Assembly (NCBI RefSeq): GCF_037042905.1
Contig: NC_087250.1
Location: 25,360,001-25,424,000, forward strand
DNA from: Lytechinus pictus
Taxonomy: Eukaryota
Length of the DNA stretch: 64,000 nucleotides
Direction of reading: 5' to 3'
The notes under the pieces are model-generated. The model saw only the letters and a list, made by a program, of their open reading frames with translations, had not been told where the DNA came from and ran no database searches. Of this stretch, positions 4,961 through 42,958 are shown piece by piece. The translations under genes and the position numbers were made by a program. How positions within the stretch are numbered: the stretch's first letter is position 1; each line of letters opens with the position of its first letter.

Positions 4961-5220
4961 TTTTTTCCAACTGCATTTACCATGATCATTATTGATCACT
5001 TGGAAGAAAAAAAAATCATCTATTATCAATTGAGCATGCTATGCATGTAACAAGCCTTTGAAAATTCTGCATATCAAATATTCTGCGCGCTTAGGTATTT
5101 CAGCATGACTCGATCAATTACAGGCCCCATAAGACAACGGAACAAGCGATAGAAACTAATCAACAACCATCTCACATCACAAAATTCAATAGACAAAAGT
5201 AATAGTTTTTGTGACTGATT

Positions 5221-5226
5221 TTTAAT
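5221..5226 (-). terminator. RPL12 polyadenylation signal (ATTAAA)
   Basis: tttaat on + strand, about 100 nt after the stop codon. Confidence 0.6.
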
Positions 5227-5327
5227 CACACCTTCACAACAATAGATGTCAAATGCTGGATAGAAATGAAAGAATCGTGTCTCCTTGAATCCTGTGTGTC
5301 ACCTCCTCATGACCTTTGACCTGACGA

Positions 5328-5333
5328 TCATTC
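5328..5333 (-). CDS. RPL12: RPL12 terminal coding exon (Glu-stop); 3' UTR runs to about 5200
   Basis: tctttcatgcag|GAA TGA, followed by non-repetitive sequence and ATTAAA about 100 nt downstream. Confidence 0.8.
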   Translation of the reverse strand, partial: E

Positions 5334-8300
5334 CTGCATGAAAGATTAAAGGGAGAATATGAAGAGAAATTAGGGGACCTAACATTTTGAACATTTGTTG
5401 TAAAATTTTGTATGTGATTTTTATATGTAACTTTTTGATGTCATCACGTTAATTATAATGAAAAATTGTGTGACAAGACATCATCAGCTCCTTTATTAAG
5501 GTCAAGTCCACCCCAGAAAAATTTTGATTTTTATAAAAAGAGAAAAATCAAATAGGCATAATGCAGAAAATTTGATAAAAACCGGATGTAAAATAAGAAA
5601 GTTATGACATTTTAAAGTTTCGCTAATTTTTCACAAAACAGTTATGCACAACTCAGTGGCATGCAAATGAGAGAGTCGATTATGTCCATCACTCACTATT
5701 TCTTTTGTTTTTTATTGTTTGAATTATACAATATTTCATTTTTTACCTATTTGACATCAAGGACCAACTTAACTGAACCATAAAATGTTATAACAATGGA
5801 AATGCCACATGTTCAGGGGGGAATAAAACTTTGTTTCACAGGACAATGAGGAGAAAAATTAAAATATTTCATATTTCATATTATACAAATATACAATGAC
5901 ACTCGAGGATCTGGCTAAAACTATTCGCATCGAAGGAACATCACATAGTACTATTCTCCCGAGGGCCATCGGCCCGAGGGAGAATAGTACCTATGTGATG
6001 TTCCTGAGTGCGAATAGTTTTAGCCTGTTCCGAGAATGGGTCACTGTATATTTGTTTTATATCCCTTCCACTCATACCATTTTACAGCGAAACGATTTTT
6101 AATAAGTCGATATAGAACAATCGTTGAGAAGTTGAGAAAATTATAAGTCTTGCCGTATGGATCGTCTGTTCAGCGAGCGCACCTGGTTAGTGCAGCTCGC
6201 CGAAAGTTTCCCGTGGCATGCAGTGGAGAGTACCGTTTGGCTGAGCAGCGCTCTGCTCGCATCGCGCCGCACAGCTCGCGAATCGCGAGGTAGGGGGGGG
6301 TCAAAAAAACGTATAGTTCACTTTTTCCCTAGGGAAAAAATGGACTATGCGTGATGTCAGCAAGGAAAATGAACTATTTCACGGCAAACGTTTTTCGTAG
6401 TAAAACTATTCCTTTTCTCCTTGTGTACACTCTCAATACAACAATCTTAAGTAAGGGATATAAAATGAAATATAAAAGAAATAGTGAGTGAGTGATGTCA
6501 TCAGTCCCCTCATTTGCATATCGACCATGATGTGCATATAAATGTTTTGTGATATTAAGCGAAACTTTAAAATGTCAAAACTTTCTTATTTTACATCTCC
6601 AATTTTGATTAAATTTTCAGTGTTATGCTTGTTCGATTTTTCTCTTTTTATTCAAATCAACTTTTTGTTGGGGTGGACTTGTCCTTTAACTTACATGTAC
6701 ATACAGCTATTTCGAAAAAATACAAACATTTCACACAACCTGTTTTTCAGTGAAGAACTTTCCTCTCTTTTTTTTAAATGAACCATACTATTTTGGTGAA
6801 ATTGGTATTTTGACCCTAAAAAATGGTGGGGGGGGGGGGGATGGGGGAATGATTTAGCCCCCCTTATGATCTCGGCCATAGATCGTGCGATAACGAAGAA
6901 AAATTGGCAGGCGCGTTACCCATGACATAATCTGCAAAACAGTAAGATTAAATTCAAATCTCATTGCTAATTAATTATGCTAATTTATGCATAAAATCAA
7001 AAGTTTGCTTTACTTAACTAAACTGCTAATTTTGGGTTCAGTCTCTTCATAGGATTCTGGTCAAATGTACCTTAAAAAACTTAAATATCACATTTATTTC
7101 CTTATGCATTTTTATTGTTTTCAAATTTTTCATGAATTTCCGTTTTTCAACATTGTTTTATTTATTGTTTTTTCAATGGAAATCTCCGGATACTTTATTT
7201 TGGCCATTTAAACAAGATGAAATTAATTGATTTTAATAAGATTAAGGAAAAATAATGCATCATTCACAAATTTTGGCGATTCAGTCCCCCTCGACATTTT
7301 TCGCAATAAATCCGCCGCACAAATTTTTTTGATCGCGTCGCTCGCTGACTTTGTACTTTCAAGTCTCATGCAACTTTTGAGACCAAAATTGCAACCCCCG
7401 GGTACGAAATTCTGAAATAAGGCAACATTTCGTAACTGCATGCAGACCCAAAATTACTCAAAAACATGAATTTGTGTACAAATCCAATTCAATTGGTGTT
7501 TTAGCCAAAGTTCATAAATGTATAATTATTTTTCCTTTTACTGATCAAAACCAATTAATTTTGTCTTGTTCAAAGTTAAAATTAAAGTCCCCGACAATTT
7601 CCTTTGAAAAAAATGAATAAAAATGTAAAAAACATAGAAATGCATAAGAAATTTAGAAAACAATAAAATACGTAAGAAAATACATGGGACTTTGACATTT
7701 TTTACTTTAGTACTTTTGATCAGATTTCTTTAAAGAGTCTGCAAACCAAAAATTAGCAATTTAGGGGCAATGTTTAGTTAATTAGAGCAATTTTTTATTG
7801 TACGCATAATTAATTAGAAATGAGATTTTGCGCAGAAATTGAACCCATAATTTTGTAGATTATGCCATGGGTAACGAGAGCGCCAAGTAACATGAGATCG
7901 ACGGCTGAGATCATGGGGGGGGGGGGGGGTCTGATTCAGCCCCCCCCTCCAGTCTATAGGGTTAATAGGTAATGAAGACAAAGGACTTTGACAGTTCAGA
8001 ATGACCAAACCGCCAATGTATCAACTCACCGCTGGGATTTCAATGTCTCCATCGTTGATCTGTTCAATGATATCATGAGGGTTCTGTCCTTCCACGGTGC
8101 ATCCTACAGACTGAGCCGTTCCCAAGACTTCCTTGACTGTTCCCTTGAGCTCACGAGCCATGGAACGCTCCCTCATCGTCCTGGCGATGTCAATGACGGC
8201 GTCGATGGGGATGTTCCCGCTGTGTGAGACTGTACAAAATCAGAAAAACAAAGATTAAATCTTTCATTCAAATCTCATATTTATCTGAATTGCATGAAAT

Positions 8301-11300
8301 TCAAGTTTGAAAATGTGAATGATACGTTTTCCATATTCAGGTCTGAAAAGATATTTCTGCTGTGGTGATTATTCGAAAAGGTTAAGAAGAGAGCAAACGT
8401 TCTTCTTGGGGGGGGGGGGTGCTGCTTCAAGATGCTGAAAATGAACAAACTGGTTATAATGTGCGTTCTTGACGGTCAGTGGGAAGGGACGTTCAACCCC
8501 CTCCTCCACCACCTACAGTAGTTTAACTTTCTGTATCTGACCTTCCTTAGCACTTTATACCACTGACTTTAGTCTGATGGGTTCTGAATGGTCAGTTAAA
8601 GAATGACCACCCCCATCTCTTAGTTGCACTTACTGTTCTTGACCTTCTTTCTATCACGAGGAGGTTCCTTGAGAGCTCTTATGAGGGACGTCTGGGACGA
8701 AGCACTTGGGACCATACTGACCTTGACCTGACAGTTCTAAATGGTCAAGCAGAGAATGACCCACCCCCACCTATCCCCCTCTCTTATTTTAACTTACTGT
8801 TCTTGACCTTCTTTCTATCACGAGGAGGTTCCTTGAGAGCTCTGATGATGAGAGATGAAGCGCTTGGGACCACACTGGCCCTGACCTGACGGTTCTGAAT
8901 GGTTAAGTTAAGAATGCCCCCCATCCCCCTCTCTTATTTTAACTTACTGTTCTTGACCTTCTTTCTACCACGAGGAGGTTCCTTGAGAGCTCTGATGATG
9001 AGACGCAGGACTGATGAGACGAAGTGCTTGGGACCACACTGGCCCAGACCTGACGGTTCTGAATGGTTAAGTTAAGAATGCCCCCCATCCCCCTCTCTTA
9101 TTTTAACTTACTGTTCTTGACCTTCTTTCTACCACGAGGAGGTTCCTTGAGAGCTCTGATGATGAGACGCAGGACTGATGAGACGAAGTGCTTGGGACCA
9201 CACTGGCCTTGACCTGACGGTTCTGAATGGTTAAGTTAAGAATGCCTCCCATCACCCTCTCTTATTTTAACTTACTGTTCTTGACCTTCTTTCTATCACG
9301 AGGAGGTTCCTTCAGAGCTCTGATGATGAGGGACGAAGCACTTGGGACCACACTGACCTTGGCCTGACGGTTCTGAATGGTCAACATGACGGTGATCTTC
9401 AGACCCTTCCATTCCTGGGTTGCCTTGGCGATGTCATCACCAACCTTCTTGGGGGACTGCAGAAAAGAGACAAATCAAAAGGGAAAACCATGACACAGTT
9501 TAGCTTTAGATAGATCCCACAGATCACAAAAATATGAATTTGTTTAAAAGGCGAGCTGCCGAGCTTAGATACAGGAAGGTTCGTCATAGTCAATTGAACA
9601 ACCAGATTGACAATGCGAATACTTCTCTACGCCTCATGCATCTTCATGGCATTCAGACAAAATGAGTTTAGTTTGGTGACCCAATGTCATTTTATAAACT
9701 GATAGATGCCCTCTCGAAATTACTGCAGTTATTTTAACCACTTAAAAGTCAACTACGAATCTTCGGGGTATGTTTTGAAACCAAAAGCAAGGTACTTAGG
9801 CTAAAGAGAAAACAATTTTCATCAACACTTGTTGTATTTCTTAGCCTCATAGGAAGACCATGATTATAGTTATTGGGGACATATGTGTACTCCTACGGAT
9901 GTCACTGAACTTAGGGTTATGTGTATAAAATCTGCACAAGATCGAGCCTTCAATCATGCGCTGCGTTCTGCGCAACTCACAAACTGTTCTATGGAATAGC
10001 CCCCCCCCCCTGCCATGATGTTCACAGAATCATCACATTTCACATGAAATATTGCAAGATGAAAAACTCACCAGACCTAGAGGACCGATCTTGGGGGCGA
10101 GAGTTGAGGTTGCTCCGACTTCACCACCCACAGCCCTCAGACACACTGAAAAAGAAAAGGAGGAAAATGGAAACCTGTCACAAAGTCTGGTTTTCAATAT
10201 TAAGAAGAACCCATCCTTGGTAATAAAATAAATGTGTGGAAGAAAAAAAAATAAGTGAAACAAAATGGTCAAACTTTGAAAGAAATCAGACTAGGAATAT
10301 TTTTTGACCGTGATTTTTCTTTCTTCTAAGTATTGTGCAACTTTTGAGACCAATATTGCGACCCCTGCACGGTTCATAAAAAACGGAACCTTTTGTAAGT
10401 GCATGCAGACCCAAAATGCTTCGTAAAATTATCATTTTTCTTTTTACTGATTAAAATCGATTAATTTCATCTTGGCTGTTGTCAAAATTAAGTACCCGAC
10501 AATGCCCATTGTAATAACAATAAAAAAAAAACAAGTTGAAAAAGAAAAATACATACAGAATTTAGAAAATACGGAAGAAAATAAAAGTGATGCTGAAATT
10601 ACATTTGATCAGATTTGTATAGTCTGTGAACCAAAAATTAGCATTTTTTAATTTGGGTCATTATTTAGATCTAGACCCTTTTTACTTAACAGAAAACTTT
10701 TTATTTTACACATGTATAAATTAGCATGGTCTACATCTAATTGGCAATGAGATTTTTTTTCAGAATTTGATCAAATAATTTTGTAGATTATGCCATGGGT
10801 AACGCGTGCTCATTTTCGTCGCAATCGATAGCCAGCAATAGCTCCCCCCCCCAAAAAAAAAAAGAAAAGAAAATTGTCTGGGAGCTGGGAATAACTGAAC
10901 CTGATGTATTACAGATTAGGCCTAATAAAGTATTTTTCTTCATTATGAAAGCAAAAAAGGAAAGAAAATAGTATAAGCATAAGAAAATATTTTTTTGGCT
11001 CCCTATAAATTAAAAAAAATTACTCCCTGTACATGGGTCGTAAAGCTACGCACCGCACCACTCATGGGTGGAAATCCCAAAATAGTAGGGAGGGGGACAC
11101 AATATGAAATGTCCCCCTACTATTTTTTGTCTTTTATAAATGATGGAAAAATGAATTATTCACAATCGAAATAAAACATGTTTTTGGACAGGATGACATT
11201 ACTTTTTGGGTGATAACCTAAACAGCTGGCAGTCGTCTGTTTTGAGGAGTTTTTTAACATTTTTATTTTTGTTTTATTGGTGAGTGGAGCCAACGGAGTT

Positions 11301-12792
11301 CAGCGGAACAACCAACATACCAGAGATCAAAGCTTTTGTTCTAGTGATAACCTAGCTTTTTTTTTTGCTTGCCCCAATTTTCAGCTCCCCCCCCTACCTT
11401 TGGGGAGAGATTTCCATCCTTGGCACCACTCATGCAGTTTCAATGGCAAATTGCGCACTCTGCTGCTGTGTGTGAATTTGTGATTGCAGAGTGATGATTC
11501 CTATTCAATTTTTCTGTTCATCTGTTTGCAGTTTGGAATTTTGTGTTCACTTCAATTTCATCATGTTCATATTTTCCTATGAATATGATAACATGAACAT
11601 ATTTTTAGAAATCAATTCAATTAAATTCAATTTGCATTTATTTCATTCTCGATAAAAACAAAATATGAGAAACAATATATTTACAATAGTAAAAAATGAA
11701 AATGAAATGGGGAACTGCATAAATAAAGCCAAGTGGCCTTGATAACATTACATGGTATAGAGAAACAATAAGATACAAAATTAAACATGATATTTATTGC
11801 CCTTCATGAAATACTATTTTTTAATTCTTTGCCTGATGAATTGAGTGCGTAGCTTTACTTTAGCCAGTTTAGGAGTAGGACCCCTTCTATTTCTAACATT
11901 GATCTGTCATCAGGCGGCAAATTATTCAAGCCAGGCAGGGGTGGTCATAAAAATTAAAACATGGCAGGATTTTCTCGTGAAGTGAGTTTTGTGATATTTT
12001 GTGAAGCCCGAAGGATCTTAGTAGTTACGAATATTTTCCATTAGAATTAGTGAAAGACGATTTGTTCAGATATTAAAATGTGCATAGTTTTATTCGTTTG
12101 AATGTGCGTAGCTTTAGCCCCCCTATATTGTTAAGCCTTAAGGTGACCGCACACCTTAACATTGGCATTGCCATTGCATTGGTCTGCGACCCGATTTTGG
12201 AATAAAACGTAGAATTTGATGCTATTGCTAATCGAGATATGGAATATCTTACTGTATAATGTTTTCAATCATCATACGAATAAATATGTTAAAATATGTG
12301 CATATGAATATCATCCTTGTTAGAATAAAAGCGAACTTAATAATATCTCGGCCTAAAAGTAAGTTAGTTGTCGTCATACCCGCCATGCCCACGTCCACGA
12401 TTTGAAACTATTTTTATTATAAATTTGGCCTTGCTTTGGCTTTACTCCAAAAGAAAAGCTTGCAACCTTTCGAAATGGTTATAATATTCTTTCAATTAAT
12501 TTTAACCTCAAATAAAATTATGGTCCATTCACATTTTCAGAAAATTAGCAAACTGCGATTTGTTCCAAAAAGGCAAAATCGGGTTGTGCGGTGTCCTTCA
12601 GAACTTCAGAAGTTTAGTTTAGAACCGCACGGTGGAACAATTACAATTACATCATTCTCTATGAATGGGACCGAAGGTCATGAAGGTACAATCCTAAAAG
12701 TGACCCATTACAAGAATTCTTCAGTAGTCTAGCAAACTGTTTTAATGGCAATTACCGATTTTAATCTCATTGGGATCGAATTTAGCAGGCAT
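5328..12792 (-). CDS. RPL12: 60S ribosomal protein L12 (uL11); join of 12792-12756, 10145-10072, 9456-9276, 8229-8030, 5333-5328
   Basis: Manual splicing of GT-AG exons of 37+74+181+200+6 nt gives 498 nt = 165 aa: [165 protein letters not shown], a clear eukaryotic uL11. Confidence 0.97.
5499..6685. mobile_element. Kolobok family A copy in RPL12 intron 4, with a nested insert at about 5890-6463
   Basis: Same TIRs as 2702-3272; family consensus interrupted by about 570 bp of foreign sequence. Confidence 0.8.
6814..7961. mobile_element. piggyBac-like non-autonomous element in RPL12 intron 4 (related fragment about 10300-10860)
   Basis: TTGA-CCCTA...TAGGG-TTAA termini, G-runs, inverted subterminal blocks. 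Confidence 0.65.
8030..8229 (-). CDS. RPL12: RPL12 coding exon 4
   Basis: tttgtacag|TCTCACACAGC...ATCCCAGCG|gtgagt; encodes ISHSGNI...[16 protein letters not shown]...DIEIPA. Confidence 0.97.
8549..9385 (-). repeat. Tandem array (150-164 bp units) of the 3' half of RPL12 exon 3 plus its 5' splice site
   Basis: cttactgttcttgaccttctttct begins at 8629, 8793, 8943, 9107 and 9271 (the real exon); partial copy at about 8549-8600. Confidence 0.93.
9276..9456 (-). CDS. RPL12: RPL12 coding exon 3
   Basis: ttctgcag|TCCCCCAAG...AAGAACA|gtaagt; encodes [13 protein letters not shown]...[11 protein letters not shown]. Confidence 0.97.
10072..10145 (-). CDS. RPL12: RPL12 coding exon 2
   Basis: ttttcag|TGTGTCTGAGG...CTAGGTCTG|gtgagt; encodes [25 protein letters not shown]. 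Confidence 0.97.
11063..11422. mobile_element. hAT-type MITE with 8-bp TSD, nested in another TIR element (about 11034-12123)
   Basis: TSD GCACCACT at 11055-11062 and 11423-11430; ends catgggtggaaatc / gatttccatccttg; host ends taaagctacgcac / gtgcgtagcttta. Confidence 0.75.
12141..12597. mobile_element. Harbinger-type MITE B copy in RPL12 intron 1
   Basis: aggtgaccgcacacc / gtgcggtgtcct termini; TTA/TCA flanks; homologous to 22463-22787. Confidence 0.75.
12756..12792 (-). CDS. RPL12: RPL12 coding exon 1 ([13 protein letters not shown])
   Basis: ATG CCT GCT AAA TTC GAT CCC AAT GAG ATT AAA ATC G|gtaatt; phase-1 donor. Confidence 0.93.
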
Positions 12793-12903
12793 GATTCTTC
12801 AATTCGAGGTGGATATTAAGTTGAAAATTCGAAGTGGCAGTGTCGGATGAATCCGATTTTGGAAACTACCGAAAAGTTGCACAAACCACTTTTCAACGTT
12901 GAC

Positions 12904-12911
12904 GAAAAGGA
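12904..12911 (-). promoter_or_regulatory. TCT core promoter motif / 5'TOP start of RPL12
   Basis: TCCTTTTC matches YYC(+1)TTTYY, about 117 nt upstream of the ATG; typical of ribosomal protein genes. Confidence 0.65.
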
Positions 12912-14254
12912 CGAGTTTGGATAATACGCCCTCTATCGTTCACATGCAGGTCAGTATCACTGCAGCTAGCGCAGTGGCGTCGATAAAATTGATAAAAGCA
13001 TATTTTTATCAACCTCTATGATCAGTGGTCTGTATTAAATATTTATTTCCGTGGTATTAAAATACCTTATGTTGATGGCCAGCTCCCCCCAAAAATGAAT
13101 AAATCACACAACAAAGTAATAGTAAAGATTTTTCCCCTTCAGTTCAAGAGCTTTTTTCACACACTATCTGCAACATTAAAAGCTTGAGGGTGCTTTTCGT
13201 CAGGGCCCCCTTTTTCAATATTTTGTCCAGGGTTGTTATTTACGAGGGCGAATTCGCCCCGACGATTCCCTTTGTATTATCATAGATTATTAGGCAATAT
13301 GGTTACTTGATAATTTGATTTTTTTTATAAACCTTTTTAATTCATGATCTTCCTTTTTTTCTACTTTTCTACTTTGATCTTACCTTTTTTCTACTTTTCT
13401 ACTCTACTTTGCAGAGTAAGACTCCAGGTAGGGGATCTCCCTTGATATCGCTGGGTGAAGAAAGTAGGCCTATGAGGTACGTGCATGCGTTATGTCTTAT
13501 TGTTACATCTTAACTTTTTGTTATATGAACCAGCAGATAAAAAAATATCAGAGTAGGCCCTACATAAATAAATAATGGAGAGAAAGAGAGAGGGGTCGAG
13601 AGCCGGAATTGGGACCTGCCAAAGTCTGGATGAAACATATCTCACCAAACAAATACAGCCAGAGCGAAGAGCAAACGCTGAAAATTGATTTGATCTTCTG
13701 ACCTGAAAATTGTCATTTGTACCGTAAGTTTACTTTTTTTTTTGTAATTAGTATTTAAAATCATTCAGTTCAAAATCATACAAGTAACAAAACACTGTTC
13801 ACAAAGTTAAATAAATAATTATTCATAATACAAAAAAATAGAGAATATAACATTCAAATCATCTAGAACAAAGTAGATACTTAGTCTGTAGAAAAAAATA
13901 GAGATATGACAAAAAAGAATTTATAGCGACGCAATTGAACTGAATGAGTAACAGAAGTAAAACACCCTCCCATCCCAGCTGCCCCCCCCCCCCACATCCC
14001 ATCCAAGCCCAGGAAGCGCGGCCTGCTTCCCTCCCCTTAATCCCAACTACCCACCATTTCAATCTGCATTCTGTGCGGCAACCAAGATCAAACTTGCGCA
14101 CCTGAATCTTCACTCCAAACGATATTTGTAGGACAAGCCTATTAATCGATCAAAGTAGAGATGTCCGTAACTGCTTCAGAGCAAATTACACAGCAAAAAC
14201 ATCCATGAAAGCACTCGAAAATAGAAAATCACTCAAAATCATTGCCTATCACTC

Positions 14255-21270: not shown

Positions 21271-23228
21271 CAGGATGTGGAAACTTACAAATGTCCTAAC
21301 TTTCTTATTTTACAGCCAGTTCTTCCGAAATAATCAGTCTATGTTTGCTAGATTTTTTTCTATTATTCAATTCAGCTTTTTTTTAAGGGGGGATGGACTT
21401 GTCCTTTAATTTATATCTAAAGATCTTACAAAAGACTTCACTAATTCCCTGAATAGAATACTGGCATTTCAGTTGAATCCCTATTACTAGTTTTAGATGG
21501 AAATGTAATAATCGATTACAATTTAGCTGTCCCCAAATATTTACAAAATATTCCACAAGAAAACAATGCCTATTTTTTGTTTAGTATTTAGAAAGAAATA
21601 TTTGAGTTTTATTATCATTTATAAAATATGTTTCTTGAAGCATTTATTGTGCTAATAAAATACTTTTACATATTGTATTGTATTGTAAGTGGATTAACGA
21701 TTTTTTAAAAGTCTTTATCAAGTATTTATCATTTTTAAATCTATATTCGTAGTCTTTTTCGAGCTTTTCTAAGCAGTTACTCAATGTTTGACCGGCCTGA
21801 ACACTCGATAGTCTGGGCCTTAAAACAATATTGGAATTTTATTGACAGTCAATATCATTGCATTGTATTCTTAAGCATATTGTTTTAACAGAACAGTTAT
21901 GAAAATCTCAAGCAAATGACAATCGTTTATCTCCCTCACTATTTATTTGGTATTTAATGTTTGAATTATACAACATTTCCTTTTTTATAGATTTGACATT
22001 ATTGACCAACATGACCGAAGCTCGAAATGTTAAAATAAGATGATTTCATATGATGGGGGGGGGGGGGGGGATATGAAACATTGTTTCTCATAAAAATGAG
22101 GAGAACAATTACATATTCAATATTTTACAAAAAATAGTGAGTTATGTCATCAGTTCCCTCATTTGCATAGGCCTACTGCCCAGGATGGTCGTTATCAATA
22201 AAAGTTTTGTGAAATTAAGCTTTTTCAGAATTTTGTTAAAGAATACAAATGTGCAAATTATAGGAAATATTTGTGAATTTATGAATGAAAATTCAGTTTT
22301 GGGAAATTTGTTTTGGATCTGTGGAAACACGTAAACAACTGATATTTAATACAAACTTTCATACGCAATTTGTGATCGTCCTGAATATTGCTTGTGGGTG
22401 CTTCACAAAGCTGTTCGTAAGTTAAGAGCGACTTTATAAGAACGACTGATGATCCTATCTTAGGGCGACCGCACACCTTACGAGTGATCTGCGACCCGAT
22501 TTCAGAATAAAATGTTGTAGAATCTGTGACTATGCTATCATCCTTCTTAGAATAAAAGCGAATTTAATATCTAGTCGCAATGACGTCATAGCAGTCGTAA
22601 GATTGGCTACGATTTGAAACTAATTTGGCCTTTACTCCAAAATAAAGGTTTCCAATCTTTCAAAATGGTTATGTTAGTATTCTTTCAATTAATCTTAACC
22701 TCAAATAAAATGTTGTGTTCCATTCACATTTTCAGAAAAATGAGCAAAGTGCGATTTGTTCTAAAATCGGATCGCAAACAGTCGTAAAGCCCCTTTCACA
22801 ATTGTTGCCAAACAGACTACAACGGCTTGCGACTCGAAATTTTTCCCGTTGTACGACTCGTTGTAGCCGTTGTACCACTTATTGTACGATCCAGATGCGA
22901 CAAAATGGTCGCATCTCGGTCGGGAAAAAAAACCGTGCTGCTCCGATATTTTGAGCGACTGACGCGATGAAAAATAATTGCACGACAGGCAGTACGAGTG
23001 TTGTGCGACTTTGCACGCACTCGTAAGACCCCGAACGAGTGTTGCACGAGTATTTTCATGTCGTACGATGATGCATCCTGTTGTACGAGTCCGTTGTACC
23101 ACCCTAAGACTATTGGAAGACCTGTCTTGCCCCCTTTGCAACGTTGTACGATTTTTTTTCACCCCCAATATAAGCTCGAGAACTCCTGAGCTTTCATCCC
23201 AAATGTCTGGACCATCCATACTGTAAAC

Positions 23229-24530
23229 ATGGCTGCTGCTCGGCCAATAGCTCCTGGGAGGCTCTTGCATTTGCTAAGTCTGAGAAGGCAAATCCAAAAC
23301 GTTCAAGACAGACATGTCATATTGATGGCCTTACTCATCCGTAGACGTCAAAGACATGCAAGGCAAAGAAGAAGGTGGTGGGTCAAACCCTGGATTGAGA
23401 GACGTGTGCTGTTTGGACAGTATGATAATCTGATGACGGAGTTGCAGAGAGAATATCAGGGTGACTTCCTGAACTACATGAGGATGCCACCAGAAACGTT
23501 CCTTGAACTGTTGCAGCGCATCACTCCGAGGATAGAGAAGTCCTATCGCTACCGGCAGCCACTGGATCCTGGGCTCAAACTGGCCATCACCTTGAGATAT
23601 CTTGCGACCGGCAACAGCTACAAAACCATGCAGTATGCCTTCCGTGTTGCCCATAATACCATCTCTCTGTTTATACCAGAGGTGTGCCAGGCCATCATCA
23701 GTGAATACCAAGATGAAGTATTTTCCTGTCCAACTACCCCAGATGAATGGAGAGAAGTGGCACGGACTTACGCTGACAGATGGAACTTTCATCATGTCTG
23801 CGGAGCCTTGGACGGAAAACACGTGGCCATCATAAATCCACCAGGCTCTGGTACGATCTACTACAACTACAAGGGTTTCTACAGCCTCATCCTCTTGGCC
23901 CTAGTTGATGGCAATTACAAGTTCCTCTGGGCTGACGTTGGTAATCCCGGTTCATCATCGGATGCCCAGGTCTTCAACCACAGCCCGCTGAGACGTGGAC
24001 TGGAGAATGGTACTCTTGGCCTGCCAGATCCAGAGCCCCTGCCAGATGATGACCGAGACACCCCTTACTTCTTAATTGGGGACGACGCCCTCACTCTCAG
24101 GACATGGATGCAGAAGCCGTACTCCAACCGTGAGCAGACCGACGAGGAGAGAATCTTCAACTACCGTCTCTCGAGGGCTCTCCGTGTGGTGGAGAACAGC
24201 TTTGGCATCCTTGCCCATCGCTGGAGATGCTTGTTGAGTACCCTACAGCTTGATCCAGAAAAGGCCAGGACAGTCATTATGGCCTGCATGTGCCTCCACA
24301 ACCTAATGAGAGATCGTTTTCCTGGGCTTCAGAACATTGACGTTGACCATGAAGATGAGTTGGGCAACCACATCCCTGGGGCATGGAGAAACGCAGCAGT
24401 TCTGCAGGATGTTGAACGAGTTGGCGGAGGCTACCAGGCAAACAAAGAGGGCAAGAAGCTGAGAACTTACCTGAAGCACTACTACAACAGTCCAGTTGGA
24501 AGCCTGCCCTGGCAACAACACATGATATAG
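23229..24530 (+). CDS. PIF/Harbinger transposase (DDE_Tnp_4, HARBI1/ALP1-like), 433 aa
   Basis: Motifs WVKPWI, RMPPETF, KLAITLRYLATG (HTH), GALDGKH, YYNYKGFYS, GSSSDAQVF, LIGDDA, FNYRLSRA..VVENSFGILAHRW, CMCLHN. Confidence 0.95.
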   Translation: MAAARPIAPGRLLHLLSLRRQIQNVQDRHVILMALLIRRRQRHARQRRRWWVKPWIERRVLFGQYDNLMTELQREYQGDFLNYMRMPPETFLELLQRITPRIEKSYRYRQPLDPGLKLAITLRYLATGNSYKTMQYAFRVAHNTISLFIPEVCQAIISEYQDEVFSCPTTPDEWREVARTYADRWNFHHVCGALDGKHVAIINPPGSGTIYYNYKGFYSLILLALVDGNYKFLWADVGNPGSSSDAQVFNHSPLRRGLENGTLGLPDPEPLPDDDRDTPYFLIGDDALTLRTWMQKPYSNREQTDEERIFNYRLSRALRVVENSFGILAHRWRCLLSTLQLDPEKARTVIMACMCLHNLMRDRFPGLQNIDVDHEDELGNHIPGAWRNAAVLQDVERVGGGYQANKEGKKLRTYLKHYYNSPVGSLPWQQHMI

Positions 24531-26966: not shown

Positions 26967-27345
26967 TTGATTGATTGATTGATTTTATTCGTCTAAAATA
27001 TCACAGGAGATTACAATGAAATTGAAGAATACCTTGACAGGATAGCCCATGAAAGCCGAAAGGCTTATTTCCAATGGGATAGTTAAATACAAAAAGTATA
27101 AACTGCGACAAATACTGGAATAAGGTACAAACAAAATAAATAAATACATATTCATCAGTGAAATACTTTTTTTGCAAAACATCTGAAGCACCCAATAATC
27201 TTCCTAATATATAAAACAAGATTATATTTTAACATACCCTGTATTATCTACAATACTAGAAACCAACTGTAGAAAATGTGTGAATTTTACTGGTAATACT
27301 GTTCTCAAGTAGCTTCCAGTTTGGGGTGCTTCTTTAATTCACTCT
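26967..27345 (-). mobile_element. LINE 3' end (CR1/L2-like) with AATAAA-(ATCA)n tail
   Basis: Minus strand ends aataaaatcaatcaatcaatcaa; FKSELKKH-like C-terminal remnant near 27350; interrupts a MITE that is intact in the paralog at about 49560-49680. Confidence 0.55.
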
Positions 27346-28586
27346 TAAATAGTAATTTCTCCGTTAACCTTAACTAATTGTGTTATAGTACTTTTCTTCT
27401 TGTTAGATTGTAATAGTTGACTAAAATACCTTGTATCCCTTTCTCCACTTTCGTACCATGTCGCACGAGACCGAATTTTAATACCTTCATTAATGTAATC
27501 GTAACTGTCTGCAAGTTCTTTTCTTTTCTTTTCTATCTTTTTAATCAATTCTTCATCTACTGAATTTACGAAACTACCTTCTAAACATTCCAATTCCTTT
27601 TCGAGAGATTCTTTTTTCATTTTTTTTTCCTTAGCCAGTTTTTTCGAAAAAGTTCTTGTGAAAGACATTATTTTCATTTTCAAATAATCCCATACAACTC
27701 TTCTATCTTTAACTTCTGTCTTTATTTTCTCCTTTAATGTAAGTATTTCTGTTTTCCTCTTTTTCACATATTCTACATTACCACAAAGGCTATTATTAAA
27801 TTTCCAATAAGAACCATTCTTTTTACGCATTTCCTTATCAGTTTTATCATACAGGAACAAAAAAATAGCTGAATGGTCAGGAGCTATAGATGGTAAAATT
27901 TTGCACCTGATAACAACATTTACAAATTCGTCTGATATTAGCCAATGATCTAATCTGCTTTGCATAAACGGATTATTTTTAGTGAAGGTAAATTGTCTTT
28001 TCAATGGATTTCTCTCTCTCCATATGTCTATTAATTGTAGTTCCTCCATGAAATTTTCTACTTCTTTACTAACGTTGTCATGTATTTTTTGTTTCACTGT
28101 TCCATTATAATCTAATTCAGAATTCATAATATTATTAAAATCTCCTCCCATTAAAACAGGTTTATTACAACTATTAATTTTATTCAATTTTATAAGCATA
28201 TCCTTTAAAAATTTTATTTGATGATTTTCTTTATCCCTCGTCGGTAAGTAAACATTACAAAGGACCATTCTATGTCCTTGGATTTCACAATCAATGAGTA
28301 TGTATCGCCCTTCGTCATCTTGTTTTATATTTATAAGTTTAAAGTCTATTGAGGTTTTGATAAGAATGAGTACTCCTCTGCTATGATTTGATCCATGACT
28401 ATAGTAACATGACCCATCCCACCCAGAACTCCATCTATCCTCTACATCTTTTGTACTATACGTCTCCTGTAAAAAAATTACATCCCCTTTTTCTTTGCAC
28501 CATAAAAATATTCGTCCCCTTTTCGCGCATTCTCTTATTCCTCTAACATTTAAGGAAACAAAATTACAATTTAAACATCTATTCAT
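27345..28586 (-). CDS. Tx1/L1-clade LINE ORF2 N-terminus (APE endonuclease), truncated before RT
   Basis: SLNVRGI, DVIFLQETY, HSRGV, NVYLP, MGGDFN, LIDIWR, SRLDHWLIS, DHSAI, then YWKFNNSL, WDYLK, IRSRATWYESGERDTRYF. Confidence 0.9.
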   Translation of the reverse strand: MNRCLNCNFVSLNVRGIRECAKRGRIFLWCKEKGDVIFLQETYSTKDVEDRWSSGWDGSCYYSHGSNHSRGVLILIKTSIDFKLINIKQDDEGRYILIDCEIQGHRMVLCNVYLPTRDKENHQIKFLKDMLIKLNKINSCNKPVLMGGDFNNIMNSELDYNGTVKQKIHDNVSKEVENFMEELQLIDIWRERNPLKRQFTFTKNNPFMQSRLDHWLISDEFVNVVIRCKILPSIAPDHSAIFLFLYDKTDKEMRKKNGSYWKFNNSLCGNVEYVKKRKTEILTLKEKIKTEVKDRRVVWDYLKMKIMSFTRTFSKKLAKEKKMKKESLEKELECLEGSFVNSVDEELIKKIEKKRKELADSYDYINEGIKIRSRATWYESGERDTRYFSQLLQSNKKKSTITQLVKVNGEITI

Positions 28587-29899
28587 AAAGAAAATCTAAA
28601 AAGATCATTCTACCATTTTTATTGTATAAAAACTTTAAGATTTTCACTACGTTATTTATAGGGAGAGTGAGGAATAGACATACCAACATATTTCCTAGTG
28701 TAACTGCAGTACATAGTCCAATGGTAAACTCTAATTTATTGCGCCATTGTTCAAAACAAAAATAAATGTCTATCAATTCGAGTATTACTATCCCTTCCAT
28801 GTAGAACATTATCTCTAAGAATCCTAAAAAAGGTGCTCGTAATACCTGCAAGTAAAAAAAGAAGGGAAGGAATCCCATCTCTACGACCTTCTCCAAAGCA
28901 ACACTCCCTCACAGCTCACCGTTCTTTACAGGTTGCTGTAGTATTTCCAAGAATAATAATCTACCCCTAATTGTTGTCTTTTTTCTTTGTTATAATCTCA
29001 TTGAATTTAAACGAAATAGCTGTAAATAAAATCAATAATGAAAAAAAGAAAAACTGACATGCATTCAATCAGCATATACAGCATTAATAAGTTAAGTTTT
29101 AAACTTACACATACTAAGCAAGTAATTTTTTATGTTAATAATAACCTATCCCCCACAAAACAATACAAGTTAAATAATGGTACATGTTTAAATGAAACAC
29201 AACCAAACAAAGTCCCAAAGCATTCCAAATCCCCTTGTTTCTATAACTAAAAAAACAACTTTCAAACAGTCCTGAGATTCACATTTTGGTAACCAAACAC
29301 CTAATCCCTATATAACAATATACCAAAGTCATGATATTGGATTCCATATGAGCATATTAAAGGTGTTACACTTTAAGGAATTAAATCACACTATTCCCAT
29401 CATTAATGCCAGGAATAAAGAACGAAATACTTATGTAACAATAATTTCCACTGAAGGTAATGCATTTATGTACCTAATCATTGGTTCAAAACAACAAACC
29501 TTGCATTTTGGGACATTGTATTGAGAATAACTTCCTTTTGAATATTTAGTTCTATCTTGTACAAAAGGAACACCTGGTATTCTTTTCTTTCTTAAAATCT
29601 AAGCAAACAAACACTTGGAGCAAACTATTACAATAATAGGCACGTTCCACAAGTAAGCATTTGTAACATATAAGTATTCAAGTACCATATTATCACATGA
29701 CAAAATCCTAGCCTAAGGTTGTTGAACCGTCGTCAGAATTATGATTTTTCAAATTCCATTATACTCAATACATATATTGCAGAATTGCAGTAATCAAGAT
29801 GTTGTCCTTAAATTCTAAGAAAATCTCAAGAATTGTGATTTTTTCATATTACTGCATATACAAAAAAAAAATAAAGATCCAAAATGTTACTTCTTTGTT

Positions 29900-38557: not shown

Positions 38558-41500
38558 TGTTACACCCACAAATGTAATAATCGCCCACAAATGTAATAAC
38601 GCCCACAAATGTAATAACACTTTACCCACAAATGTAATAACGCCCACAAATGTAATAACACTTTACCCACAAATGTAATGATTTCACCCACAAATGTAAT
38701 AATGCACTTTACCCACAAATGTAATAATTTTTGATCGCCCACAAATGTAATAATGACTTTACCCACAAATGTAATAAATTTGAAGGGATTTTTGGCAAAT
38801 CTGTTCTAAACTAAAATCCTATAGTAATTCGTTCATATAGCACAAAAGTGCAAAGTCTTTTTTCCAGACCCGGTTAATAAAACATTATAGTACAATTCCA
38901 AAGTCTTTTTCCAGACCCGGTTGTTTCAAAATTATAATATACGTCCAAAGTTTTTTTTCCAGACCCGGTTAATTAACAAATTATAATGCAAGTCCAAAGT
39001 CTTTTTTCCAGACCCGGTTGTTTCAAAAATTATGATATACGTCCAAAGTCTTTTTTCCAGACCCGGTTGTTTCAAAAATTATAATATACGTCCAAAGTCT
39101 TTTTTCCAGACCCGGTTAATTCAAAAATATAATATACGTCCAAAGTCTTTTTTCTAGACCCGGTTGTTTAAAAAATTATGATATACGTCCAAAGTCTTTT
39201 TTCCAGACCCGGTTGTTTCAAAAATTGTAATATACATCCAAAGTCTTTTTTCCAGACCCGGTTGTTTCAAAAATTGTAATATACGTCCAAAGTCTTTTTT
39301 CCAGACCTGGTTAATTCAAAAATTATAATGCAAGTCCAAAGTCTTTTTTCCAGACCCGGTTGTTTCAAAAATTATAATATAAGTCCAAAGTCTTTTTTCC
39401 AGACCCGGTTAATTAAAAAATTAGAATATAAATCCAAAGTCTTTTTTCCAGACCTGGTTGTTTCAAAAATTATAATATACGTCCAAAGTCTTTTTTCCAG
39501 ACCCGGTTAATTAAAAAGTATAATGCAAGTCCAAAGTCTCTTTTCCAGACCCGGTTGTTTCAAAAATTATAATGTAAGTCCAAAGTCTTTTTTCCAGACC
39601 CGGTTAATAAAACATTATAGTACAATTCCAAAGTCTTTTTTTCCAGACCCGGTTGTTTCAAACATTAGAATATAAGTCCAAAGTCTTTTTTCCAGACCCG
39701 GTTGTTTCAATAATTATACTATACGTCCAAAGTCTTTTTTCCAGACCTGGTAGTTTCAAAATTATTATAAGTCCAAACTAAGATAATGATATTCTAGTTG
39801 AATAAAATGAGAATCGAGCTCAGTCTTTTCTCCAGACCCAGTCAATTAAAACTGGTGGAAATGTAACAAAGACCCCAACTCTTTTGTAAATGTTAAATAA
39901 CATGGAAATATAGCGTAGTCTTTCATCCAGACCCAGATCTTTCAAATAACAAATGAATAATAATAATAATAAATTATTAATAATAAAAAAGCAAACAACG
40001 ACCCACGATCCTATTTATGTTGAATAACATGGAAATATAGCGTAGTCTTTCCTCCAGACCAAGATCTTTCAAATATCAAATGAATAATAATAATAATAAA
40101 TTAGTAATAATAATAAATTAATAATAATAAAAAAAGCAAACAAAGACCCACGATCCTATTTATGTTGAATATCATGGAAATATAGCGTAGTCTTTCCTCC
40201 AGACCCAGACCTTTCAAATAAGAAATGATGAATAATGATAATAAATTAGTAATAATAAAAAAGCAAACAAAGACCCACGATCCTCTTTATATTGAAAACA
40301 TGGAAATATAGCGTAGTCTTTCCTCCAGACCCAGTTATAAAAGTCATTTAAAACACAACAACAACAAAACAAAGACCCTGCAATCTTATCATCATTGAAT
40401 AACATGGAAATATGGTGTAGTCTTTCCTCCAGACCCAATTATTTCAAAATAATCAAAATCATTAGAAAAGAATAACAGAATCTAAGGCCCAACTATCCTT
40501 CAAACTAAGAACCTTCAATAAATAAAAGTTTAGAGAGTTTTCTTTATTCCAGACCTTGTCATTTAAAAAATAAGATAAATGAAATCCTCATGACTAAGAC
40601 TCAATCATATTCTTGTGCCTGTTCAACATGAATAAGATGATTGGGGGAGTATTTCATCAACATTTATGTCCGACAAGTTGTCAGATCTGACAACTGTTCT
40701 TGATGTTGATTAGCTAAGAAGCAGTGCTACCAGTGTCGGATAAAACGTCAGACAACTCCTTTCATGAAATGCTCCCCGGGCTCTAAGTTTTGATGTTGTT
40801 TTTATTATAAATTTCTTTGCCTGGAAGAAAAAATGAATGTTTAATTGCATCATTTATTATAGGATGTTAGGCTGGAAGAGGGTTAAATATTTTTTGTTCT
40901 GTTTTTTTTTTAATAAACTGGTCTGGTCAAATTAAGTATGCGTTATCACAAGGGTTTTATAGTTTGGAAGATGCTGGGGTCTAAGTTTTAAGATTAATGT
41001 TTTGCTTAATTTGTATTTTAAAGAGAACTGGGTGAGGGGTAAAGACAACACTCTAAGCCCAAGCATTTTAAGTTGGTTTAATTTTGAAGATTGGTCTTAG
41101 CTGTGATTTTTTTTCAATATTTGATTATATTTTAAATAACCGGGTCTAGACGAAAGACTAAGCATAATACTCGTGTTATTCCACAAGAATAAGAATATGA
41201 CAAAGTCATATTCTTACTCTATTTTAAGATTGTTTAAATCATTTTTAAATTACTGGGTCTGGAATAAAGACAACGCTCTAAACATGTGCTTTTCTACATG
41301 CATGGTCTTAATTTGGAGGATTCAAATTCAAATTCAAAATTTATTTATTTCACTTCCATCAAACAAAAACAAATTGTATACCATATATAAACATAAATAT
41401 TTGTATCCGTTGCAAACAAAATTAATGATACATATGTTTTGAAAAAAACACTTAAACAATTTCGGCAACACATTGTAGGTTTTAAATATGTATACTAATT

Positions 41501-42958
41501 TTTCAATAGAAATTAAATTAAGATGGAAATGGGGGGACCCACTAAAAAGCAATGCTTGTACAACGTGGGCCCCTCAAAAAATAGATAACACAACAAATAA
41601 CAAAATAACAAAGTATAAATACAGATAATCAAATGAGAAAAAATAAATACATGAGAGGGATTGTTGGTTCTAAGATTCGTTTTGGGGGTTGGGTTTTATT
41701 GATTTTTTATTTCTTGAAATAATTGTGTCTGGAGGAAAGTCGATCTTCGACAATCGGTCTTCATGTTATATCACAGTAATTAGATTATTGGGTATTCGTT
41801 TTAGAATATTTGTAAAAACTACTTTATTTTTTCAAATAATAACCAAGTCTGGAGAAAGGATGTTTGCTTTACCCATGCATTATTACAATGTTTTGTAGGG
41901 GTCGTAGTATTATTTTTTTAAAATGGGTGTGGGGTAAAGACATATTTTTTTACTGGGTGAAACTTTGGAAAATTGGTCTTAGATTTGAAGTTTTTTAATT
42001 CATTTTTTAATAGCCGGGTCTGGAGGAAAGACTTTGGACTTATATTGTAATTGTTTAATTATCCGGGTCTGGAAAAAAGACTTTGTACTTTGGTGCTATA
42101 TGAACGCATTGCTATAGGGTTTATTTTTTAGTTTTAAGTAACCGGGTCTGGAGAAAAGACTACGCTTGATTCTCAATTTACTCTTAGTGCATATATTCAC
42201 AATATACGCCGTATAAGTTGAAACAACAACAAAGACATTAATTCCGCCAGTTTTAATTAACTGGGTCTGGAGAAAAGACTAAGCTCGATTCTCTTTTTTT
42301 TTCCACTGAAATATCATTATCATATCTTAGTTTTGACTTATATTATAATTTTTGAAATAACCGGGTCTGGAAAAAGACTTTGGACTTATATTATAATCTT
42401 TTAAACAACCGGGTCTGGAAAAAAGACTGGACTTATATTATAATTTTTTAAACAACCATGTCTGAAAAAAAGACTTTGGACTTGCATTATAATTTTTGAA
42501 TCAACCGGGTCTGGAAAAAAGACTTTGGACTTATATTATAATTTTTTAAACAACCGGGTCTGAAAAAAAGACTTTGGACTTGCATTATAATTTTTGAATT
42601 AACCGGGTCTGGAAAAAAGACTTCGGACGTATATTATAATTTTGAAACAACCGGGTCTGGAAAACGTCTGGTAAAAACACTTTGCACTTTTGTGCTATAT
42701 GAACGAATTACTATAGGATTTTATTTTAGAACGGATTCGCCAAAAATCCCTTCAAATTTATTACATTTGTGGGTAAAGTCATTATTACATTTGTGGGCGA
42801 TCAAAAATTATTACATTTGTGGGTAAAGTGCATTTTTACATTTGTGGGTGAAATCATTACATTTGTGGGTAAAGTGTTATTACATTTGTGGGCGTTATTA
42901 CATTTGTGGGTAAAGTGTTATTACATTTGTGGGCGTTATTACATTTGTGGGTGCAACA
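38558..42958. mobile_element. 4.4-kb foldback element with modular tandem-repeat TIRs, TGT..ACA ends and 5-bp TSD
   Basis: GACCC-TGTTACACCC...GGGTGCAACA-GACCC; outer CCCACAAATGTAAT repeats, unique inverted spacer and inner about 42-bp TCCAGACCCGG repeats, mirrored at both ends. Confidence 0.88.
40643..40777. mobile_element. Small MITE (second copy about 54696-54863)
   Basis: gggg..tttcatcaa..tccgacaagttgtcagatctgacaac...ctttcatgaaa-gctcccc present in both copies. Confidence 0.7.

Follow-up and report, generated by a model that had tools for sequence, protein, structure and literature searches.

Tandem copies of the end of exon 3 and its 5′ splice site in intron 3 of an RPL12 gene, probably a tolerated donor-spanning minisatellite

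Intron 3 of the RPL12 (uL11) gene in the window, the 64,000-nt stretch of DNA analyzed here, starts with a head-to-tail array that repeats the end of exon 3 together with its 5′ splice site. The first unit crosses the exon 3–intron 3 boundary, and a unit is made up of 109 nt from the end of exon 3, the donor, and 41 to 50 nt more of G-rich intron head. We consider it probable that the array is a tolerated, donor-spanning minisatellite like those of human F7, CBS, and LMNB2, and that the first donor is the one used. The host gene lies on the minus strand and was identified through Pfam (Ribosomal_L11_N and Ribosomal_L11) and PDB L12 (E 2e-28). Its five coding exons total 498 nt and give an open frame of 165 codons plus stop. 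The landmarks of the gene, with splice junctions marked by a slash, are as follows.

12756..12792, minus strand: coding part of RPL12 exon 1, 37 nt, donor TCG/GTAATT
10072..10145, minus strand: RPL12 exon 2, 74 nt
9276..9456, minus strand: RPL12 exon 3, 181 nt, the last 109 nt of which (9384–9276) are the source of the repeat
9270..9275, minus strand: authentic intron 3 donor GTAAGT (intron 3 spans 9275–8230, 1046 nt)
9262..9264, minus strand: in-frame TAA for any transcript reading past the authentic donor
8030..8229, minus strand: RPL12 exon 4, 200 nt, for which contig run X1 has a spliced loose end joining exon 3-type sequence to exon 4
5328..5333, minus strand: last RPL12 coding exon (GAA TGA)

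Near the head of intron 1 (12655–12598, minus strand) there are also box C/D-like words (ATGATG ... CTGA), which have no Rfam match (E up to 5).

The presence of an exon 3-end array with repeated AAGAACA/GTAAGT donors, reported in a preliminary description of this DNA, was confirmed by TRF, by blastn, and by the donor positions themselves. TRF places the array at 8580–9368 with a period of 164, 5.0 copies, and a score of 820. Copies were located by blastn of exon 3 against the window, with copies 1 to 4 matching exon nucleotides 73 to 181 at E values from 2e-42 to 2e-30. Position +1 of the AAGAACA/GTAAGT donors falls at 9275 (authentic), 9111, 8947, 8797, and 8633, so that the spacings in gene order are 164, 164, 150, and 164 nt, and G runs lie behind every donor of the array. 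The copies in the intron are listed here.

9112..9234, minus strand: copy 1 of the exon 3 end (blastn), 14-nt insertion, identical donor at 9111
8948..9070, minus strand: copy 2 (blastn), 14-nt insertion, two exon-derived differences from copy 1, identical donor at 8947
8798..8906, minus strand: copy 3 (blastn), insertion-free, 150-nt period, identical donor at 8797
8634..8748, minus strand: copy 4 (blastn), older, 6-nt insertion, CAG>TAG in the exon frame, identical donor at 8633
8496..8594, minus strand: copy 5, the most decayed, with its 5′ part at 8594–8549, an internal deletion, a dead donor, and a G-rich head to about 8496

The array had been counted as four full copies and one partial copy. 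The four stand as counted; the fifth is not just partial, as it resumes after its deletion and carries a mutated donor. The donor 9-mer ACA/GTAAGT is unchanged in four of the five intronic copies, and in copy 5, where the blastn match covers 8594–8561, it has become ACA/GAAAGT at 8531. In two tests of 1000 shuffles each, no shuffle reached the local scores of copy 5 (39 and 43). No further decayed copies were found in 8232–8490 or in intron 2. Two candidates were rejected on their scores: a unit-junction-like motif at the head of intron 4 (score 24, shuffle maximum 28) and, in the 3′ UTR, a word like it (score 24, shuffle maximum 30). Rfam gave no matches at gathering score in the window and two weak, unrelated matches (E 4.5) in 5200–13000, none of them inside the array; an intronic snoRNA duplicated with its exon flank was rejected because the unit has no Rfam snoRNA match. 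The stretch from the authentic to the first distal donor has no unusual or stable fold (z +1.06).

The window as a whole is rich in minisatellites, with 69 TRF rows. It also holds a large inverted repeat (38584–42951), with arms at 38584–38869 and 42666–42951 that are 98% complementary and inner 49-bp tandem arrays; it looks like a foldback-type element. An open frame at 23190–24530 on the plus strand matches DDE_Tnp_4 (E 4e-28), which we take to be Harbinger-type, and another at 27345–28595 on the minus strand matches Exo_endo_phos (E 2e-14), presumably a LINE-type endonuclease.

Within the array, the young units (copies 1–3) adjoin the real exon, copy 4 is older, and copy 5 is a ruin without a GT. 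Between copies 1 and 2, which have the 14-nt insertion in common, 2 of 73 columns of the 5′ part are different. From these two, copy 4 differs at 15 to 17 of 65 columns, a few of which are misaligned columns at the copy 4 insertion. The copies carry distinct, nested mutations. Six changes relative to the real exon are common to copies 1–3 (9234–8798), four of them synonymous in the exon frame, and the ancestor of copies 1–3 may derive from a functional allele or paralog of exon 3.

Of 24 contig runs considered, four were compared, on 7945–8805 only, where the real exon and copies 1–3 are seen via contigs fitting copy 4. Run X1 comes from organism A, and 11 of its 15 contigs are at least 99% alike to the window. 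A 153-nt X1 contig is identical to 8650–8802, across the intron-to-copy-4 junction, which indicates that this junction is real, though X1 may be the source of the assembly. Runs X2 and X12 have differences from the window in common at ten listed places and thus represent a relative, organism B. One X12 contig (record 15) contains the real exon 3 with its donor, after which come the intron head found behind copy 3 in the window and the beginning of an exon copy that has copy 4's TTGACCATTT. Another (record 14) links exon 4, by way of the intron, to an exon-like unit. Since this unit lacks the letter of the B real exon at 8680 and its fit ends at 8684, it is not the real exon of B. An exon–intron–copy junction is thus common to the window and organism B, so that B has at least one copy and the first duplication predates the split. 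That the real exon of B is followed by the head found after copy 3 in the window suggests that B has fewer units, and copies 1–3 look like additions after the first duplication. At row 8671, all four window copies read CTC, whereas both the real exon and the copy of B read CTG, a pattern that points to exchange or homogenization among the copies after the split.

A unit variant that the window does not have is also present in run X1, in a 435-nt contig (record 4, at 8632–8805) with a variant intron head, an insertion-free copy, and 17 other differing letters. Beyond the donor GT, it continues for about 259 unrelated letters, from which an 18-mer is absent from the window at up to three mismatches; another allele and a dispersed unit are candidate explanations. 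Cover gaps, in X1 at 8148–8611 and in X2 over most of copy 4, are uninformative. In X1, a loose end of 13 letters is spliced into exon 4 but does not allow donor assignment; the contig of real-exon type has a depth of 36.6. The 28 contigs of an RNA run (X3), none of them at least 95% alike to the window, come from other organisms and bear no evidence on splicing. In organism B (X2 and X12), contigs of depth 130 to 250, mostly above that of the exon 4 contig (86 in X12, 148 in X2), carry pieces of exon 4 (8036–8087 and 8071–8122) in other flanks, perhaps a fragment of the exon that a repeat has picked up. X2 and X12 both contain a second version of the intron 3 3′ end (8237), and X1 contains a second version of the intron 4 start (8023); a second RPL12 locus and deeply diverged haplotypes are candidate readings.

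We compared copy 4 with its counterpart, the unit adjoining the unique part of the intron, in one contig of this one relative, for which orthology is inferred from position. The two units differ at 7 of 75 letters, six of the seven without an assigned place; for plain intron the figure is 25 of about 317 (Fisher p 0.64, with an estimated denominator). Exon 4 differs at 3 of 196 letters (p 0.006 against the 7 of 75 of the unit). Thus, where a regulated intron should be more conserved than an ordinary one, the copy diverges like plain intron. Among the window units themselves, variation is uneven: the last 50 exon nucleotides plus the donor vary at 3 of 56 columns and the upstream part at 15 of 59 (Fisher p 0.004), with boundaries set post hoc, three of the 15 being misaligned columns, and a scan-corrected p of 0.043 to 0.061. 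Conversion among the copies, bounded by the insertions, can give such a quiet donor block; selection could do so as well. A metagenome scan for the same donor 20-mer gave 20 loci, of which 11 were RPL12 by tblastn (three of these may be one species) and nine were dropped as chance 20-mer matches. None of the 11 distant RPL12 loci had an exon copy in the 150 to 1495 nt examined downstream. In four of the RPL12 loci (L004, L009, L011, and L020), an extra intron lies about 100 nt into the stretch that is a single exon 3 in the window.

Read-through at any of the distal donors had been predicted to run A/GT AAG TTA AAA TAA into a premature stop, and this proved correct for all four, each giving a stop after residue 101. 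The TAA lies 150 to 628 nt ahead of the exon 3/exon 4 junction and 350 to 828 nt ahead of the last junction, and exons extended to the distal donors would measure 345 to 823 nt. By the usual junction rule, such transcripts are NMD targets. With the stop this far before the next junction and intron 4 lying 3′ of it, NMD of distal-donor transcripts is plausible.

We propose that the array goes back to an old tandem duplication, in which the G-rich head of intron 3, some 50–60 nt long, became linked to exon 3 at a point 109 nt before the end of the exon. Each unit carries the exon end and a 5′ splice site and is without a real acceptor. Unequal exchange would then have added units beside the real exon, where the gradient of ages is observed. 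By analogy with the F7 experiments, the spliceosome would take the first donor through 5′-to-3′ precedence and exon definition of the 181-nt exon; a leak to a later donor meets the TAA and would be cleared by NMD. If leaks are removed in this way, the array costs little and drifts, and old donors decay. The array is thus most likely a by-product, with steps observed in its sequence and predicted in its splicing. The suggestion of a tolerated exon-derived minisatellite, made in the preliminary description, agrees with the age gradient, the indels, the nonsense change in copy 4, the dead oldest donor, the divergence at intron rate, and the existence of a known class whose repeated donors, in the accessible part of PMC1557585, are mostly silent. 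Several observations argue against a silent array: the donor is still perfect in four of the five copies, at least one copy has persisted from a time before organism B split off, the donor block is quiet (3/56 versus 15/59 columns), and in CBS and the 6-16 gene splicing also uses the two donors that follow the first (PMC1557585, accessible part). In addition, the units are longer than any case in that part of the article and carry most of an exon, so that first-donor precedence may be weaker here.

The same perfect donors and G runs could instead serve a selected AS-NMD switch, in which splicing would move to a distal donor when RPL12 is in excess or when the G runs are bound in the manner of hnRNP H, and the TAA would then lead to NMD, the repeat having supplied or amplified the unproductive site. 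Such a switch, tunable by copy number as previously suggested, is geometrically possible given the sequence, in that all four distal donors would lead to a stop well upstream of the junctions. C. elegans rpl-12 autoregulates and human RPL12 has an AS-NMD form (PMC4937301, PMC8047918, and PMC3177206, accessible parts); G runs, found here behind every donor, act in the control of human RPL3 according to the excerpts available; and the duplication common to organism B and the quiet donor block (scan p about 0.05) are likewise as expected of a switch. We nevertheless regard it as unlikely. The excerpts describe the AS-NMD introns of ribosomal protein genes as unusually conserved between species, in contrast to the intron-like divergence of the copy; the oldest donor is dead, one alternative donor would be enough, the quiet block can be explained by conversion, and there is no conserved fold. 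Unlikely to the same degree is a copy-number-tunable AS-NMD rheostat acting on a dosage-sensitive ribosomal protein, for which the exon-end duplication would have provided a ready-made unproductive donor. Distal donors might also be used without any feedback, the first one or two taking a few percent, so that copy number would act as a splicing or expression QTL. The identical donor 9-mers favor such an unselected leak, as do the use of the next two donors in the CBS and 6-16 minisatellites (PMC1557585), the frequent association of human tandem repeats with splicing levels (PMC10078293; accessible part in both cases), and the hint of polymorphism in the X1 unit variant. It would require extended exons of 345 to 823 nt, and a large leak should be purged, since ribosomal protein genes are often dosage-sensitive (PMC4937301, accessible part); we consider it quite unlikely.

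A very unlikely reading is that the array, or its near-identical copies 1 and 2, is an assembly artifact of mis-joined haplotypes. Copies 1 and 2 differ at only two exon-derived columns, no contig spans 7945–8805, copies 1–3 lie outside that stretch, and no run has half of the words. An artifact is nonetheless hard to reconcile with the X1 contig identical to 8650–8802 (with the proviso on its source made above), with DNA of organism B that independently has the same junction, or with the distinct nested mutations in the copies. Extremely improbable, in our estimate, is the inclusion of pseudo-exons through CATTCAG/CATTTAG, as poison exons (copies 3 and 4) or as a 37-residue in-frame insertion (copies 1 and 2). 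An AG and a TTAAC or TTGAC word do occur at each junction, and the pseudo-exons of copies 1 and 2 would give an open frame of 202 codons. The junction motif CTTAAC followed by CATTCAG, previously assigned to every copy, is not that of copy 4, which reads TTGACCATTTAG, and the pseudo-exons, described as out of frame, are so for copy 3 (97 nt) and copy 4 (103 nt) and are in frame and stop-free for copies 1 and 2 (111 nt). The branch-like A lies 8 to 13 nt from the AG, compared with a typical 19 to 37 nt (PMC10078293, accessible part), and the tracts contain 13 to 15 pyrimidines in 20, compared with 16 to 19 at the real acceptors of the gene (the exon 4 row being read 2 nt off). The same CATTCAG AG, with 13 of 20 pyrimidines, stands unused inside the real exon 3; the intron from the preceding donor would be only 53 nt (61 nt for copy 4); and an insertion between the two uL11 domains would be unlikely to be tolerated. 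The poison-exon variant of the earlier proposal is therefore not supported, given the closeness of branch A and AG, the poor pyrimidine tract, the unused AG, and the frame of copies 1 and 2.

Read as a tolerated donor-spanning minisatellite, the array belongs with the repeated-donor arrays already known from several human genes, to which RPL12 most likely adds an invertebrate-type example; what it contributes beyond these is its host gene, a long unit rich in exon sequence, and donors that range from young through old to dead. The literature searched, in its accessible parts, contained no publication on an RPL12 intron 3 array. Five identical donors 150 to 164 nt apart in a highly expressed gene form a natural test of first-donor precedence, and single-letter marks (CTG/CTC, GAT/GGT) let short reads distinguish the donors. 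These marks lie 22 to 38 nt before the junction, with CTG and GAT in the real exon, CTC and GGT in copies 1 and 2, and CTC and GAT in copies 3 and 4. Were the distal donors used and feedback-controlled, the array would illustrate a route by which AS-NMD of ribosomal protein genes can originate from simple duplication; were the rheostat true, it would be a record of the birth of ribosomal protein autoregulation, in which young donors stand beside old and dead ones.

Known systems resemble the array in part, the sources being taken in their accessible portions. In potato RdRp, an intron was gained by tandem duplication across an intron–exon boundary (PMC4974935). The RPL12 duplication likewise crosses an exon–intron boundary and copies splice signals; unlike in potato, where the acceptor side was copied and a new intron arose, it is the donor side that is copied, and no new intron appears. 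AS-NMD of rpl-12/RPL12 in C. elegans and human is established, as had been stated, and the ribosomal protein genes autoregulated by AS-NMD comprise C. elegans rpl-12 and rpl-1/L10a (with the L10ARE between two 5′ splice sites) and human RPL3, RPL12, and RPL10A (PMC4937301, PMC8047918, and PMC3177206, citing Mitrovich and Anderson 2000 and Cuccurese 2005). As in these genes, use of an alternative donor farther downstream would introduce a premature stop and make the transcript an NMD target, and the gene family is the same; their unproductive intron part, however, is unique, conserved sequence, whereas in the RPL12 array a decaying copy of an exon takes its place. Human minisatellites with a first monomer lying across an exon–intron boundary include the 37-bp VNTR of F7 IVS7 and those of 6-16 gene intron 2, CBS IVS13, LAMIN B2 (100 bp), and PDGF intron 4 (81 bp) (Borensztajn et al. 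2006, PMC1557585). In F7, identical pseudo-donors work once the first donor is mutated and otherwise do not compete with it (PMC1557585). The RPL12 array has the structural features of this class, and its likeness to it is one of structure: its first unit takes in the end of the real exon together with the donor, and identical donors are reiterated without a reiterated acceptor. It differs from the F7 kind in its unit of 150 to 164 nt, longer than any length in the accessible part of PMC1557585 and about two thirds exon-derived, in its few units with a clear age gradient that includes a dead donor, and in its host, a ribosomal protein gene with AS-NMD in other animals.
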